In this document: piece after piece, positions 44,559-52,452 of the stretch
Layout of the letters: each line of letters begins with the position of its first letter
Numbering within the stretch: position 1 is the first letter of the stretch
Source of the DNA: an uncultured Methanoregulaceae archaeon
GTDB taxonomy: Archaea; Halobacteriota; Methanomicrobia; Methanomicrobiales; Methanospirillaceae
Assembly (NCBI GenBank): GCA_963717525.1
Contig: OY970343.1
Span: 768,001-832,000, forward strand
DNA length: 64,000 nt
Reading direction: 5' to 3'
Notes under the pieces: generated by a model
Databases searched by the model: none
The model's input: only the letters and a program-made list of their open reading frames with translations
What the model was told of the DNA's origin: nothing
Translations under genes and position numbers: made by a program

Positions 44559-45167
44559 TCAGATAAGGTCGATAAAATTTTTGAGCAGCGCAAGACCGAC
44601 CGCCCCGCTCTTTTCCGGGTGGAACTGGACGCCGTACACGTTGTCGCGGACTATTGCCGAGGCAAAGGGAAGGATGTACTCCGTGGAGGTGAGCGTGTAC
44701 TCCGGGGTAGTATCGGCATAGTAGGAATGGACGAAGTATACATACGCTTCCCTGGGGAGACCGGCAAAAAGCGGGCTTTTCTCTTTTGTGAGCCTGATTG
44801 TGTTCCAGCCCATGTGCGGGACCTTGATGCCGGGGACCACAGGAAACCGGCGCACGCAGCCCGGGATGAGGCCAAGACCCTGGTGCAGACCGTGTTCCTC
44901 GCTTGAGTCCATGAGCATCTGCATACCAAGGCAGATGCCAAGGAGCGGGACATCTTTTACCGCAGCACAGACCGTCTCCCTGAGGGGGCCCAGCTGGTCC
45001 ATGCCCTCGTGGAAGGCGCCAACACCCGGGAGCACGATGCCATCGGCAGCCGCGATCTCGTCTGCATTGCCGGTAATGACCGCCCTCGCCCCGGCTGCCT
45101 CGATCCCGCGCATGACGCTGCGCAGGTTTCCGAGACCGTAATCAATGATGGTGATTGTCGTTCCCAT
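44559..45167 (-). CDS. hisH: Imidazole glycerol phosphate synthase subunit HisH
   Basis: IIDYGLGNLRSV, LPGVGAF, GICLGMQ, VPHMGWN, QFHPEKS. Confidence 0.95.
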   Translation of the reverse strand: MGTTITIIDYGLGNLRSVMRGIEAAGARAVITGNADEIAAADGIVLPGVGAFHEGMDQLGPLRETVCAAVKDVPLLGICLGMQMLMDSSEEHGLHQGLGLIPGCVRRFPVVPGIKVPHMGWNTIRLTKEKSPLFAGLPREAYVYFVHSYYADTTPEYTLTSTEYILPFASAIVRDNVYGVQFHPEKSGAVGLALLKNFIDLI

Positions 45168-46557
45168 GTACGTCCTCCCGGATCCTCCATGCCCCGCTTT
45201 CGATCCAGTCTGCGGGGAGATCCTGCGTCCTGCGCCATGCTTCGAGGTGTTCCTTCCACCCCTCCCAGAGGCCGGCAAAATCGGTCTCGATCATGTGGAT
45301 CAATGCCATATCACTGGACGGGCACATGAAACATCCGATCCGATCCAGCCGGTGTTCGTAGAGCCGGTTGTAAGGAGCATGCTCCATAAAAAGGTAGAGC
45401 CAGACGTGAAGCGCAGTCCAGTCCTGGATCGGGGCCGCAGAAAGCTGCACCTTTACCGTCGGGTTTCTCCACACACGATCGCTCCCTGCCCGCGAGAGGG
45501 ATTCGTACCGGCGCTGGCCGATAAAAGAGAGGCACTCCCCCCAAGTCGTGCGGATCGTCTCTGTGACCGGCAGGAGCTTGCAGACGCTGCAGCACCAGCG
45601 GGCGTTGACAGCCGGCGGGCCCTGCCGGGCAAGGGTCGTCCAGAATTTTTCAGATGTGGCAGTCCGGATGACCTCTGCCTGGTACTTCTGCTCCACCTCT
45701 GCCACATTCGCGTAGGTCTCCGGGAACTCGAGGCCGGTGTCGGCAAAGAGCAGCGGGACGTTCCCGAGGGCCTTGCGTACGACCAGCAGGGTGGCAAGGC
45801 TGTCTTTTCCCCCGGAGTACGAGATCGTTGGCTGGAGCAAGTACGCGGCGGCGACGTCCTTTACAAACCGTACCTGCCTCACCTTCGGTACTGTGCGATG
45901 ATACCGGCATTGGACCGGACGGCATCCTCCCATGTGGCCTTCCCGGGCACGATGGTCGAGGCAACATTCCTGCGGTTGCGTACAACCTGTCCCTTCTGCA
46001 GTGCCCGGGCCTCTTCTGCCCCGGCCTTTGCCCTGCCGACGCCGATGCATTCCCTCTTCTTGGCAAGGATGAAGACCTCGTCACCTTTCCGGACCGCATC
46101 GTCAATAAAATCGAGTCCGGGCCTGAGCACACTCATGCCCTGGTCGCGGATGAAGGGCACCGCGGTATCATCGACCACGACGAAGCGTTTTTCCGGCCGG
46201 AAAAGGGCACACGCTTCGGGGCGCGGGATCGGTTCCCACCTGCGTTCTTTGGGGATGTACCGGATGGAGCCGGCGATCCCCCCGCCGATCACGATCTCTT
46301 CCATCCGGTCGGTGTCCGGGTACCTTGTTTAACAGGACGAGATGGCCGGCGGGAACGAGCGGTGCGCCAAAGTGCTCACAAAAGATACTGTTGACAAGCG
46401 TAATATCGGCCGGAAAGGCCGGCCGTGCATCGCCCGGTGGCGTGAGCGGCACCTCGCGGGTTGCCGAACCACAGGAAGCACAGGTCTTTGCAAGGACCGG
46501 TGTGTGACACTGGTCGCACCAGCGCAGCAGGATCCTGCCAAGATAGGGGGGGCGCAT
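45142..46557 (-). CDS. PAPS-reductase family protein with Zn ribbon and PUA domain (two frameshifts)
   Basis: WC..C..P...C..C, TPPGDARP; PUA domain; SYSGGKDS, RWCC..CK, RIGCFMCP. Confidence 0.88.
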
Positions 46558-46757
46558 TCCCACATCTGTTCGCGCTTGTGGGATAAAATGATAAGCGCTG
46601 TCTCTTCCCGGTCAGGAAAAATTCTCTATCTTCCGGTAACGGCGGATGGTTTGGATAATATCGACAGGTTTGATATGTACGTCTTACCATTATGAGACTG
46701 TGACAGCCGACTGTTCAGGCACCGGGCGTGCCGGAGGTTTTTGGGAGGCGATCGAAG

Positions 46758-47021
46758 ATGATTCTTGATATCTGGCTCTTTACAGCAGTCGGTTTTTTTA
46801 TTCTCACCTTCTGCGCTGTCCTGCGTATTGTTCCCGGCCCCACACTGAATGATCGCCTGATCGCGGTCAATGTCGCAGCCACCCTTGCATGTGCAGGGGC
46901 GCTCGCCCTGACTGTGGCCATGGGCAGCCTGCTCGTGGCGCTGGTCGCCGGCCTGACCGCATGCGTCGTGTTTGCGGCGACGATCAGAATCTCCCAGGTA
47001 CGGAAGGGTGCGGCGTCATGA
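46758..47021 (+). CDS. Mrp/Mnh antiporter subunit F-like protein
   Basis: RIVPGPTLNDRLIAVN; 3 TMs. Confidence 0.8.
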   Translation: MILDIWLFTAVGFFILTFCAVLRIVPGPTLNDRLIAVNVAATLACAGALALTVAMGSLLVALVAGLTACVVFAATIRISQVRKGAAS

Positions 47022-47371
47022 GCGCATGGTTGCTTGATGGGCTCATTACCGTCCTGCTCGTCCTTGCGGTCGGCTTTGGGGCCATCAGCGTCATCGGCCT
47101 GCTCCTCTTCCCGGATATCCGGAGCCGGTCCTTTACCGGCCTGCGGGCCGGCATTCTTGCGACTGCCCTTGTGACCGGTGCCGGTGTTTGTTATGGCATC
47201 TTTTCGTGGATCACCTTTGGTGGCAGGCAGGTGCAGTACCTGCAGTATACGCTCGTGGCGATCCTGATGCTTCTCCTGGTAGTGCTCCTCAACCGGGTCG
47301 CAACTCGTGTCCTGTGCCATTCGTCCGTGCCGGTACAGCCCCCTTCTACGGGTGAAAAAGACCAGTCATAA
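47018..47371 (+). CDS. Mrp/Mnh antiporter subunit G-like protein
   Basis: IGLLLFPDIRSR; 3 TMs; ATGA-coupled. Confidence 0.75.
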   Translation: MSAWLLDGLITVLLVLAVGFGAISVIGLLLFPDIRSRSFTGLRAGILATALVTGAGVCYGIFSWITFGGRQVQYLQYTLVAILMLLLVVLLNRVATRVLCHSSVPVQPPSTGEKDQS

Positions 47372-47461
47372 CCTCTTTTCCGCGGTGTTCCGGGTAATCC
47401 CGGGCGGCTCTTTTGTTCGTTAAACCGGGCAGGAGAGGGTTCCGGAAACCTGATGTACCGT

Positions 47462-47813
47462 TCAGCAGGCCTTTTCTTCCGGGAGTGTTTCATCTGCTTC
47501 CGGTTCCATGAAACAGAGCACAGCCGCAATTCCGAGGAGAATAACTGCCGGCAGGTACCAGGTTATCAGGTACAATGTTCCGGCAAGCGGGACCGACAGC
47601 AGGATCCAGACCGCGGATGAGAGCAGCATCCACCCTGCAAACCGGGTCTCAGAGTTTGCAATCGCTGCCCCCATCAGGCCGAGGCTGGAAAAAAGGGCGG
47701 CCTGGACTCCTGAGAGGGTCATATCGGAGGAAGTCTGAGGTAAAAATAACATATGCTGCGGTGGCAATACCGAGAATACCTCCGATCACGCCCACGATAA
47801 ACTGTCTCTTCAT
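47462..47813 (-). CDS. Small membrane protein (frameshift near 47735)
   Basis: MKRQFIVGVIGGILG joins hydrophobic ORF 47462..47767. Confidence 0.65.
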
Positions 47814-48200
47814 CACTACACGATAGGACAACAAACGCTCTTAAAGATTGCTTTTTTTATCTTCCGGTATATAATAGACCGGGCCGGATGAAGGCGCGGG
47901 GGGCGTTTTTTGGGAAATGTCTGGTAAAACAGCGTTCCCGCTCACAATCCGGAGGATTTTCAGAGAATAATTGTCCGCTCTATTGGGCCTCTTTTGGCAA
48001 TCCGGGTGAAATTATAAGGATTGCGCAATTTCCTCCCAATCGTTCCTAAATCGGTCCTGTTCCGGAGTCTCCCATTTTTCGCAGGATAAAAGTGTGATTC
48101 AGTGCGATTCTATGGGCGAAACCATAATTTTGACCAAAATATTTATCTATTCGTAGAATAATGAAAATTATAACCCTTTCCGGTGGGAGGTGGAATGTAA

Positions 48201-48284
48201 ATGGTTGCAGCAAAGAAACCGGCCGCAAAGAAGGCCCCAGCAAAAAAACCCGCCGTAAAGAAGGCAGCCCCGAAGAAGAAGTAA
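48201..48284 (+). CDS. 27-aa histone-H1-like basic peptide MVAAKKPAAKKAPAKKPAVKKAAPKKK
   Basis: SD GGAGGTG at 48186-48192; synonymous codon variation among repeats; downstream T-tract. Confidence 0.85.
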   Translation: MVAAKKPAAKKAPAKKPAVKKAAPKKK

Positions 48285-48303
48285 TTATCGGGCATAATTA
48301 ATG

Positions 48304-48319
48304 TTTTCTCTCTTTTTTT
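48304..48319 (+). terminator. Oligo-T archaeal terminator
   Basis: TTTTCTCTCTTTTTTT 20 nt after the micropeptide stop. Confidence 0.6.
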
Positions 48320-48445
48320 GAATTACCCTGTCCTGAAGATATAATGACTGATAATGGTCACCGTTTGCAGCAATCCTTCCCGGTAACCGATACCGGGCAT
48401 GGGAACATGAATACCCCGGTACCACGGTAATGGATCACGCTGGCC

Positions 48446-49108
48446 TTACTCCGGCCACGTAATGACCTCTTCCACCGATGGCCTGATCGAGGGAGACAAC
48501 GGTTCTGCAGGATATCCCGTGGCGCACCCCATGAGCGCCCATCGCCCGGGTTCAAGCCCGAGGATCCGGCAGAACTGCTCGTTCACTGCCATCTGTGCCG
48601 TGACAGAGACAAGCTGGAAGCCGAGGCCGAGTGCCGTCGCTTTCAGCCACATGTTCTCCATGCAGTGCGCAAGGGACTGCTGTTCTACGGGAGGAAATCC
48701 CTTTTTCTCCGCGACAACGATATAAAACGGGGCAGTGCCGATACCGGGTACCATGCCCATGTTTCTGATCATCGCAAGCCGGTTTATGAACCCGGCTGCC
48801 TTGCTCCGTAGGCCGGCATTATGTGATGTTTCCCGTACCAGAGCACTGGCCATTGCGACAACCTCTTCAAAGACCAGCGGGATCAGCGCTTTCATGGCCT
48901 TTGACTCCTTCCGGACCACCACAAACCTCCTGAAATAATCGGTCGAATTCCCGATTGCCGATGCCGCAAATGGAGCATGGAGACCGGCGTGAACGATGCT
49001 CTCGATCATCTCATCCGTGGGGATATCTGCTGTAAACTTCCGGTGGGAGCGGCGTTCCCCAATAATCCTGTCCAGGATCGCGTTGTCCTGATCGGTTTTT
49101 GCAGTCAT
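48446..49108 (-). CDS. Nitroreductase family protein
   Basis: ERRSHRKF, AGLHAP, ENMWLKATALGLG, TGYP. Confidence 0.9.
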   Translation of the reverse strand: MTAKTDQDNAILDRIIGERRSHRKFTADIPTDEMIESIVHAGLHAPFAASAIGNSTDYFRRFVVVRKESKAMKALIPLVFEEVVAMASALVRETSHNAGLRSKAAGFINRLAMIRNMGMVPGIGTAPFYIVVAEKKGFPPVEQQSLAHCMENMWLKATALGLGFQLVSVTAQMAVNEQFCRILGLEPGRWALMGCATGYPAEPLSPSIRPSVEEVITWPE

Positions 49109-49260
49109 GTTCTTTCAGCCTCACATTTCTTGGAGTGCCGGGATATTTCAAGCTCATGTTCTTACGGACCGCAAGAGCGGGAACGTTTTTTGGAAAGGAA
49201 TTGTTGCCCTGTCATCCATATCCTCACTTTTTATATGCCATCCCCTCAAATCCCTGAATC

Positions 49261-49845
49261 ATGATAGACGCGATTGTCCGGAAAGTTAAGGATCTCCTCA
49301 CAAACCCTCTGGAGACTTTCAGGAAATCACGGGAGGATGAAATGACCCCCGTCGTCAGGTATTTCCTCGCTCTCCTGGTTGTCGACGCGGTCCTGACCGC
49401 AATTATATCCCTCGCCGGTTTTGGCATATGGGGCATGGTGGGCAGGGTCACGCATATCCACCACCCGATACTGATCTTTCTCCTTGTGCTTATCGGCGGT
49501 CTTATCCTTGCCCCTATCTTTGCCGCATGGCTGCACCTCTGGGTCTGGATTGTCGGCGGGCGCAAGGGGTTTTCTCAGACCCTCAAAGCCGTTATGTACG
49601 GCGCAACACCCGGTTTGCTCCTTGGCTGGATCCCCATTATCGGTATCCTGTTCCACCTCTGGGCAATGGTCCTTGCCATCTTCGGGATCCACGAACTGCA
49701 CGAGATTGACGGTGGCAGGGCAGCCTTTGCCGTGATCATTGCAGTCATCATCCCGCTCGTTATTCTCGTCCTGATTGCAGCATGGCTTCTCGTTGGCAGC
49801 GTGGCCACGACCATGCCTGTGGCAAGGACGGGACTCCTCTCATAA
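49261..49845 (+). CDS. Yip1 family membrane protein
   Basis: Paralog of 12128..12739 (HLWVWI.GGR.G..QT.KA..YG.TP.L.LGWIP). Confidence 0.87.
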   Translation: MIDAIVRKVKDLLTNPLETFRKSREDEMTPVVRYFLALLVVDAVLTAIISLAGFGIWGMVGRVTHIHHPILIFLLVLIGGLILAPIFAAWLHLWVWIVGGRKGFSQTLKAVMYGATPGLLLGWIPIIGILFHLWAMVLAIFGIHELHEIDGGRAAFAVIIAVIIPLVILVLIAAWLLVGSVATTMPVARTGLLS

Positions 49846-49991: not shown

Positions 49992-52452
49992 ATGCCGGAA
50001 GAACGAGATGCTGCTACAGGGACACCCGCCGGGTACGAGGCCATGGGAACCGGAGAACTGATCGCCTCGTTATCAGCGGACACAAAGAACGGGTTGTCTG
50101 CAGCTGAGCACAAACGCCGGGTCGCAGCATACGGGTACAATGAAGTCCAAGAAAAAAAGGCCAACCCGTACCTGGGTTTCGTAAAAAAATTCTCCGGTCC
50201 CACCGCGTGGATGCTCGAGGCGGTCATTGTCCTCTCCCTTATCCTTGGGAATTATGCTGACGTGTACGTTATCGTGGCGCTCCTCTTCCTCAACGCTGTT
50301 CTTGGTTTTTTCCAGGAGCAGAAGGCGTCGGTTGCTGTCGATGCACTGAAGCAGAGGCTGCGGGTGAATGCACGTACCCTGCGGGACGGGACCTGGCAGA
50401 TACTCCCGGCACGGGATCTTGTCCCCGGCGATATAGTACGGATCCGGGCCGGTGACTTCGTCCCGGCCGATGTAAAGGTACTCGACGGGAGTCTTGCTGT
50501 AGACCAGTCGGCCCTGACCGGTGAATCACTCACGGTTGAGAAAGCAGCGGGCGGGATGCTTTATTCGGGCTCCATCATCAGGTCCGGGGAAGCGACCGGG
50601 CTTGTTGTCCTCACCGGGGCCCGGACCTATTTTGGGAAGACGACCGAACTGGTGCAATTTGCGCGCCCGAGGCTCCAGGCCGAGGAGTTAGTCTCGCAGG
50701 TGGTGAAATGGCTCTTGGTGATCGTCGGCCTAGCGCTCGCTGCCGCCTTTGCTGTCGCCGCATTGGCCGGCATGCGTATGCTTGATGTTCTCTCCCTCGC
50801 GCTCGCGCTCCTTGCCTCCTCCATCCCGGTTGCGCTGCCCGCGATGTTTACGATAACGATGGCTCTGGGGGCCATGGAACTCGCGAAGCGCGGCGTGCTT
50901 GTGACCCGGCTGAGCGCGTCAGAAGATGCGGCCACAATGGATACCCTCTGCACGGACAAGACCGGCACGATCACCACAAACCGGCTCACTGTTGCCGGCA
51001 TTATCCCGGAGGCCGGGTGGAGCGAGGCAGATGTCCTCCTGTACGGGGCACTCGCCTCGGAGGCTGCAAACCATGATCCCATCGATTGCGCGTTCCTTGT
51101 TGCGGCAGAAGACCGGGATATTCCTACCGGGGATTTTGCCCGGCGATCTTTTGTCCCCTTCGATCCTGCAACCCGGAGGACTGAAGCGATCGTGGAGAAG
51201 GCCGGTACGACCAGCCGGGTGGTCAAGGGTGCCATCAGTGCCATCGCGGAGCTTGCCGGGACCGATCCCGCCGGGCTCAGGGAGCAGTCCACCGGGTTTG
51301 CTGCGAAGGGATACCGGACGCTCGCGGTGGCGATGGGCACCGGTGAACAAACACAGCAGGTCATCGGGCTCGTTGCCCTGTACCGACACACCACGGCCGG
51401 ATGCCGGAACACTGATCGGCGAGTTGCAGGACCTCGGGATATCGGTGAAGATGCTGACCGGGGATGCCCTCTCCATTGCGCAGGAGACGGCCCGGCAGGT
51501 CGGCCTTCCGGGAACCATCACGGCCGCTGATGAACTGGAGAAAGCACGGGCAACCGATCCCCATCAGGCCTCTGCGCTGGTCGAGCAAAGCGCTGGGTTT
51601 GCACGGATCTACCCGCAGGACAAATACGAGATCGTCAAAAGCCTGCAGGAGAATGGCCACATCGTCGGCATGACCGGCGATGGTATCAACGATGCACCGT
51701 CTCTCCGGCAGGCAGAAGTGGGGATCGCTGTCAGCAGTGCAACCGATGTGGCAAAAGGTGCAGCAAGCGTGGTCCTGACAAGCGACGGCCTTGCTCATAT
51801 CATCGACCTTGTGCTGGTAGGCAGGATGATGCACCAGCGGATGCTCACCTGGATCTTCAATAAGGTTGTAAAGACCTTCCAGATCGTGGTCTTCGTGGTC
51901 GTGGCGTTCCTTTTGACCGGCCAGTTCATCGTCTCAGTCTTCGGTGTTGTGCTGCTGCTCTTCGTGATCGATTTTGTTACGCTCTCGCTCTCGACCGATA
52001 CTGTGCGGGGGTCGAAAAGACCGGACAGCTGGGATATATCGGGCCTCGTGAAATCTTCGCTTGTCCTTGGTGTCCTCGTCGTTCTCGAATCCCTTGCAAT
52101 TCTCGCGGTAGGCCTCGGGCCGCTCGGCCTTGCCGGCAACCTTGCCGCAATCCAGACGTTCTCGTTTGCGATCCTCTTCTACTTCGGGATGCTCACGGTC
52201 TTTGTGGTCCGGGAGCGGGGGCACTTCTGGGATTCGTTCCCGAGCAGGTCGCTGTTTTGGATCACGCTCGCGGACATGGGTGTTGTGGCCGTGCTTGCCA
52301 CTGTGGGAATTCCCGGGCTTGCAGCGATTCCGCCCATGGATACGCTGATCGTGATCGGTATGTCCGTGGTCTTCTCGTTTGTGATCAACGACTCTGTCAA
52401 GTATGTCATGCTCAGGCGGGGAAGAGAGAAGGCCAAGAAGTCCGGGATCTGA
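49992..52452 (+). CDS. Plasma-membrane proton-efflux P-type ATPase (frameshift near 51380)
   Basis: DQSALTGES, IPVALP, DKTGTIT, PFDP, KGA, MLTGD, TGDGINDAP. Confidence 0.92.

Follow-up and report, generated by a model that had tools for sequence, protein, structure and literature searches.

The window, a stretch of 64,000 nucleotides on contig OY970343.1 of an uncultured Methanoregulaceae archaeon, contains a micro-gene in an intergenic gap, with a divergent small membrane ORF on one side and a convergent nitroreductase gene on the other. The features of the locus, in window coordinates, are as follows.

45142-46565, minus strand: PAPS-reductase/PUA gene, here in three frames, with a PUA match; synteny anchor on the upstream side.
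48107-48114, plus strand: upstream element ATTCTATG, a possible regulator site some 25 nt ahead of the BRE.
48132-48149, plus strand: putative archaeal promoter, BRE-like GACCAAAA followed by TATA-like TTTATCTA; near-invariant in 14 orthologues.
48170-48200, plus strand: 5' leader of about 30 nt, predicted start near 48172, with an ACC/GGT mini-hairpin of 3 bp at 48173-48184.
48186-48192, plus strand: Shine-Dalgarno (SD) GGAGGTG, 8-nt spacer to the ATG; spacer of 7-9 nt in 69/69 orthologues.
48201-48284, plus strand: Lys/Ala/Pro ORF of 27 aa; net charge +11, pI about 11, 2786 Da with Met.
48304-48319, plus strand: T-rich tract, probable archaeal intrinsic terminator; a run of at least 5 T is kept in relatives.
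48446-49108, minus strand: convergent nitroreductase gene (PF00881); downstream in just 8 of 72 host-genus loci and not fixed.

Translation of 48201-48284 on the plus strand gives MVAAKKPAAKKAPAKKPAVKKAAPKKK before the stop codon, with 11 K, 9 A, 4 P, 2 V and 1 M laid out as four KKxxx pentamers (KKPAA, KKAPA, KKPAV, KKAAP) and a KKK end. The preliminary description had reported an ATG at 48201 with GGAGGTG 8 nt before it and the same numbers of K, A and P, all of which agree with our reading. It had also described the gene as standing alone, and this was confirmed at the level of the genome: a K/A/P filter on the 2.29-Mb host genome passed six stretches, five of which are segments of larger proteins, and the micro-gene ORF, with its own promoter and T-tract, is the only stand-alone one. 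K/A/P-rich tails were also observed on many ordinary host-genus proteins (G000:C1 near 656983, 1565704, 1555911, 2223461, and 1529478), suggesting a general use of such tails, and they result in false matches in searches. The 27-mer is expected to be disordered. An amphipathic membrane-active peptide was dismissed on its maximum hydrophobic moment of 0.24 and GRAVY of -0.84.

Identity over the 48132-48149 box averages 0.96 (10-nt bin, 69 loci) compared with about 0.6 further upstream, and by the archaeal consensus this box is probably the promoter. TATA-like boxes had earlier been placed at about 48141-48173; the conserved box stands, while the second TATA box near 48168-48173 probably does not, since that AT stretch is more likely a transcription start region. 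Archaeal promoter spacing would put the start near 48172. In the ATTCTATG element, ATTCT is invariant and ATG nearly invariant among 14 aligned orthologues. The leader keeps ACC...GGT in 14/14 host-genus variants, and changes fall either in the 6-nt loop or beyond the stem; the stems in other genera are different, of 3-6 bp and each weak, and are absent from most g11 leaders. Folding of the 50-nt leader was no better than that of shuffles (z = 0.1 to 1.3 for four leaders folded), and an SD-masking hairpin was ruled out by these values and by mostly non-compensatory variants. In a single case (L072, G379:C29), both the SD and the pyrimidine loop in the leader are changed such that an SD-masking pairing would persist.

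The full GGAGGTG-type SD precedes 21 of 4675 mechanical ORFs of at least 100 aa in the host genome, and in one further genome the micro-gene has an SD with a one-base variant. Codon fractions of the ORF, which rest on 11 Lys and 9 Ala codons, are 0.73 for AAG and 0.56 for GCA vs. 0.68 and 0.39 in the ribosomal-protein set. The rare full SD and the ribosomal-protein-like codons suggest that the micro-gene is highly expressed. The T-tract that had been noted after the stop codon was located at 48304-48319, and a run of at least 5 T within 45 nt of the stop is present in 67/69 orthologues and, among metagenome copies, in 100 of the 105 that could be scored. An RNA search returned one peat metatranscriptome run with 7% of the sampled words, which yielded only contigs over 47000-49400. 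A 252-nt contig of this library spans 48127-48255 with 4 differences; it may be DNA and not RNA, because it includes the promoter and its upstream part is unlike the window, and we do not take it as a sign of transcription. Other contigs of the same run, from relatives, fall on neighbouring genes.

The ORF and its SD are conserved in relatives, with orthologues in at least 78 of 102 sampled Methanoregula genomes, many of them incomplete. When 400 genomes of the order were searched with a protein profile, matches came from 76 of the 102 in the host genus and from 4 of the 11 in g11. In five of the 76 the match lay in longer frames only, and the 71 retained were joined by at least five genomes from a pattern search (among the matches listed) and two from a DNA model. 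When 30 relatives were searched at the DNA level, matches came from 15 of the 18 genomes in the same genus and from one of the other 12, where only the flank matched. The micro-gene was not found by DNA profile search in two host-genus genomes that are 93-94% complete (G204 and G014). Named database records with the micro-gene belong to Methanoregula, Methanoregulaceae or Methanomicrobiales, and a promoter of the micro-gene type was present in 70 of 117 parsed matches.

Over 69 unique host-genus loci, dN/dS is 0.12 (0.10 among the 14 closest), pairwise differences at codon positions 1, 2, and 3 are 0.12, 0.095, and 0.35, all length variants stay in frame, and the stop codon is TAA in 57 and TGA in 12; this set consists of related, not independent, sequences and omits two long paralogues, loci cut by contig ends and one variant-SD locus. 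Selection at the protein level, which had first been argued from synonymous codon variation inside one copy, is thus carried by dN/dS, the original argument being weak. A leader-only metagenome pattern, with no coding information beyond ATGG, matched at least 120 loci, and all 109 complete ORFs from the matches listed contain at least 36% Lys, 107 being 24-31 aa long and the other two 52 and 108 aa. The 79 distinct peptides with the family leader contain 967 Lys, 0 Arg, and 0 Asp, and yet AGA/AGG make up 19.5% of the Arg codons in the host genome. These results show that the micro-gene is a real, self-contained protein-coding gene under purifying selection, and that selection acts on the spaced lysine pairs.

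It is very improbable that the locus yields no functional protein and that its product is instead a small RNA, a leader peptide of the attenuator type or a precursor on which a modifying enzyme acts. Conservation of the leader and promoter matches that of the ORF, which would suit such a role, but the low dN/dS, third positions that differ three times as often as first and second ones, and in-frame lengths speak against it, as does the lack of an Rfam match. Pairing between the 5' and 3' UTRs beat shuffles (z < -1.64) in only 1 of 113 loci, by which closed-loop pairing was also ruled out. What lies downstream differs between loci, with a convergent gene in the window, and synteny over 120 loci revealed no fixed enzyme neighbour downstream; an attenuator was dismissed on the variable neighbours and their convergence at the window locus.

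In the same 120 loci, the upstream 1.5 kb or so contains a divergent PAPS-reductase/PUA gene in 18/72 loci of g1, 7/8 of g11, 18/19 of g5, and 1/4 of g3, and the intact homologue at L394 has PAPS_reduct plus PUA domains. The window copy is frame-split, as is a P-type ATPase gene at 49992-52452, and polyphosphate kinase elsewhere matches in two pieces; the splits are probably assembly indels. Downstream, a siroheme-synthase-like gene occurs in g1 (8), g11 (5), g22 (1/5), and g6 (2/6), and another upstream gene is common to g6, g39, g42, and g44. No chromatin gene was found among the recurrent neighbours of these loci. L394 (G056:C6) is filed under g3 and carries a peptide, leader and neighbour of g5 type, pointing to transfer or a misbinned contig.

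A DNA profile was run on 160 chosen genomes and the best 60 loci were read. Stand-alone basic ORFs of 19-31 aa with the same promoter-leader-SD-terminator layout occur in g11 (4/4), g24 (1/1), g5 (14/15), and g39 (3/3), and also in g42, g44, g6 (6/8), g3 (3/10), and g22 (3/8 plus one doubtful), and synteny links most of them to one another. The syntenic, diverged peptides of 19-31 aa have net charges of +4 to +12. Outside the host family, the Ala/Pro pentamer is lost, Asp, Glu, and Gln are gained and the net charge is +4 to +8 (+4 to +7 in the syntenic relatives of g5, g39, g42, g44, and g6), with acidic residues at about 10-17% in g5, g6, and g39. Across the order, the peptides have in common just their small size, paired lysines and basic C-end. 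The net charge of these relatives is about half as high, which weakens the case for pure condensation as the role of the entire family.

The micro-gene was not found in the searched genomes of g10, g12, g13, g20, g21, g29, and family f4, where divergence could hide it. Those DNA-model matches in g10, g14, and g18 that were read were rejected as K-rich N-terminal tails of a long enzyme. In 30 genomes, 59 loci were scanned over 1.5 kb around two synteny anchors and no micro-gene was found; in 14 genomes, the sequence between the anchors (326 kb) held just a 15-aa variant, in two g3 genomes. This basic ORF (L469:5547-5594 and L471:291-338) lies between the anchors with a TATA box, a leader of about 30 nt, GGAGGTG, and a T-tract, and is possibly the shortest family member.

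Stand-alone Cys-headed or Lys/Glu versions were also observed in other families of the phylum. In family f14, SD-led stand-alone ORFs of 28-29 and 96-100 aa (L497:1524-1613, L498:1564-1650, L506:1513-1602, L504:1556-1645, L492:1292-1582, and L493:1516-1818) combine a cysteine-rich head (CxxCxC or CGCGC) with a K/A/P tail that ends like the 27-mer; the four scanned gave no Pfam match, and they are possibly a metal-binding version. In families f9 and f8, L494:1537-1614 and L503:1527-1610 encode stand-alone Lys/Glu pentamer peptides of 25-27 aa with net charges of +4 to +5 and with promoter-like and SD signals. Such K/E-mixed versions, together with the few properties kept across the order and net charges of +4 to +12, would fit a general polyanion buffer or stress protectant, in effect a genetically encoded polyamine or a disordered shield that prefers no particular target. 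This role is improbable, however, because the strict KKxxx register and Arg exclusion within the host genus go beyond what bulk charge would need.

Stand-alone look-alikes of 18-36 aa, in series reaching more than 200 aa, occur in unrelated bacteria, such as a 27-mer in Nitrospirae record L277 and a 21-mer in Stagnimonas record L295. In low-complexity sequence of this kind, shared descent and convergence look alike, including with respect to Hc2. Hc2-like stand-alone ORFs that lack the family leader were observed at L403:1463-1630 (55 aa, f2) and L358:1527-1637 (36 aa, g17). Among viral sequences, a loose pattern matched at least 117 loci, including 12 rows from 11 loci with short K-rich ORFs, none with the family leader, and a specific pattern matched five loci, none belonging to the family. 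The viral contigs L122, L144, L176, and L207 contain SD-led poly-lysine ORFs of 23-30 aa with a short Tyr/Gly/His-containing start that are unrelated to the family. Ten of ten family peptides were absent from a collection of 15 billion proteins, which means little for peptides under 30 aa because its shorter search starts at 30 residues; of 17 peptides of at least 30 aa that were looked up, three were present, two of them named hypothetical protein. No paper on the micro-gene family was found by title or abstract start, in a search with most subscription papers and supplements outside its scope.

Two genomes carry, besides the short gene, a copy of 92 or 112 aa under the same promoter and leader. 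Both copies pass the Pfam HC2 model (PF07382, cut-off 40 bits) with 48.5 and 59 bits, respectively, while the 27-mer scores 15 bits, under the cut-off, with HC2 as its sole Pfam match at E<=1. On the NCBIfam models NF038052 (Hc2, cut-off 135) and NF038053 (Burkholderia H1-like, cut-off 80), the 27-mer reached 12.3 and 14.3 bits and the long paralogues at most 42.6 and 42.5, respectively. A 52-aa intermediate exists under the family leader, and overall lengths are 24-112 aa. The long copies that pass HC2 and this intermediate indicate that the 27-mer stands at the short end of a series of Hc2-like repeats in which length is free to vary. Judged from its sequence, the gene is an expandable repeat unit, usually about one Hc2 element long. 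For the 92-aa paralogue, the ESM Atlas returned HC2-type bacterial clusters at 0.96-0.97 with low recognition, which is a weak lead.

The Hc2 pentamer is described in PMC2848022 as two basic residues plus three of A, V, T or P. The pentamers of the 27-mer fall within this definition, and its family resembles chlamydial Hc2 (HctB) and the Hc2-like proteins of Bordetella and Burkholderia in variable repeat number. Hc2, however, is 165-237 aa long, and the micro-peptide lacks Arg and a long non-repeat C-terminal region and belongs, unlike Hc2, to an archaeal host with true histones. The composition of the host-genus peptides (K 41%, A 37%, and P 10% over 70 loci) is close to that given in PMC11331069 for the chicken H1.11L tail (K 41%, A 31%, and P 13%). 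Both are K/A/P copolymers with evenly spaced lysines and little or no Arg, but the 27-mer has no winged-helix globular domain, is about one quarter of the length of the tail (111 residues) and lacks S/T-P-x-K sites. Thus, the histone-H1-like label first given to the peptide is apt for tail composition and Hc2-type pentamers, and fails for want of a globular domain and for scores below the HC2 and Hc2 cut-offs. The family is an archaeal minimal variant of the H1-like/Hc2-like polycations, outside H1 and Hc2 by the curated tests. As stated in the review PMC6136690, linker histones homologous to H1 were not found in archaea.

KPAA/KPAV-type repeats are also shared with the tails of Pseudomonas AlgP and PhaF, which are attached to a folded N-terminal domain, whereas the 27-mer stands alone. 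According to statements in PMC9239181, AlgP KPAA-repeat peptides bind DNA in vitro and the KPAA domain is required for polyphosphate granule spacing. A granule protein that acts in this manner, coating polyphosphate or linking granules to the nucleoid, would also be consistent with the polyphosphate kinase 1 encoded in G000. This is quite unlikely, since the 27-mer has neither the 124-aa N-terminal domain nor the 154 aa of repeats of AlgP, and the kinase was not among the recurrent neighbours tested. Methanosarcina mazei sP26 (bioRxiv 2020.05.06.080432) is by description also a small, unstructured protein of a methanogen, 23 aa long and encoded by a conserved gene of its own; it differs in that it targets a specific enzyme, glutamine synthetase, and comes from a leaderless mRNA, whereas the micro-gene mRNA would have a leader of about 30 nt.

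The 27-mer matched no solved structure in the PDB even at E 10. The ribosomal microproteins eL41, bS22, and Thx are 25-35 aa long, highly basic, Arg-rich and fixed in length and sequence. The 27-mer shares their small size and basicity and not their Arg richness or fixed length, and it is possible but doubtful that it acts in their manner as a ribosome- or RNA-associated microprotein, neutralising rRNA phosphates or stabilising stored ribosomes or mRNA. Products of 24-31 aa with basic character, a strong SD and ribosomal-protein-like codons would fit this role, and the eL41 gene was not found in G000, a weak test in which no control scored above the cut-off. However, lengths of 24-112 aa under one leader and a sequence not kept between families are not what would be expected of a protein seated in a fixed pocket of the rRNA, and the Arg-free composition and the absence of a structure match also weigh against it. 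An RNA target would have a parallel in Hc2 itself, which is described as RNA-binding and translation-repressing in PMC2848022.

The host genome, which is 87% complete, encodes one short histone and Alba, and MC1 and HU were not found in it. Histones are present in 67/67 genomes of the order and MC1 in 0/67, so that the peptide would act beside histones and not replace them. We consider it about an even chance (probability about 0.5) that the peptide is a disordered polycation, present in abundance, which binds nucleoid DNA without specificity alongside the tail-less archaeal histone. DNA binding is favoured by the H1-tail-like composition, the Hc2-type pentamers, the Arg exclusion and the DNA binding of AlgP repeats, as well as by the rare full SD and ribosomal-protein-like codons. 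It is also favoured by size and gene organisation: nucleoid-associated proteins (NAPs) of archaea are typically small, single-gene units, as PMC7613761 puts it, and the micro-gene is small and has its own promoter, a T-tract and variable neighbours. On the other hand, the peptide carries just +11 on 27 residues compared with an H1 tail of 111 residues, and Lys and Pro are weakly condensing choices by the account in PMC11331069, where lysine-for-arginine replacement and proline weaken condensation. The low-charge relatives, the failure to find the micro-gene in several histone-bearing genera and the absence of chromatin genes among recurrent neighbours also argue against DNA binding. Composition does not choose DNA over RNA or polyphosphate, because any polyanion would bind such a peptide.

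If the peptide does bind the nucleoid, a strongly expressed single-gene unit would supply a disordered polycation of 26-27 residues, comparable in action to a histone-H1 tail on its own or to a single repeat element of Hc2. Its contacts with nucleoid DNA, and probably with RNA too, would be electrostatic and non-specific, and would bring about weak, reversible charge neutralisation and compaction of DNA free of the tail-less histone. Its lysine-only chemistry and prolines would favour loose, dynamic condensation and not protamine-like packing, and the lysine-only make-up would leave room for control by lysine modification. It is tentatively proposed, though rather unlikely, that the peptide serves as a linker-histone tail in trans, binding DNA between histone hypernucleosomes and tuning compaction, possibly under lysine modification.

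The 27-mer is too short for the protein collection searched and its gene is missed by gene-finding software; moreover, its tryptic fragments are no longer than 5 residues, so proteome-based NAP surveys would miss it. The significance is tempered by similar unannotated polycation micro-genes in many bacteria and by a role that we infer here. An experimental host is within reach, because a diverged relative of 31 aa is on file at NCBI as a hypothetical protein of the named species Methanocalculus alkaliphilus. Should the peptide prove to be abundant and located on the nucleoid, a component would be missing from the chromatin inventory of common methanogens, and a synthetic 27-mer and the natural expansions of 52, 92, and 112 aa could be used to test how small a functional H1-like unit can be. 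If the linker tail in trans is true, histone-bearing archaea would have an H1-like chromatin layer that has been missed below gene-calling limits.
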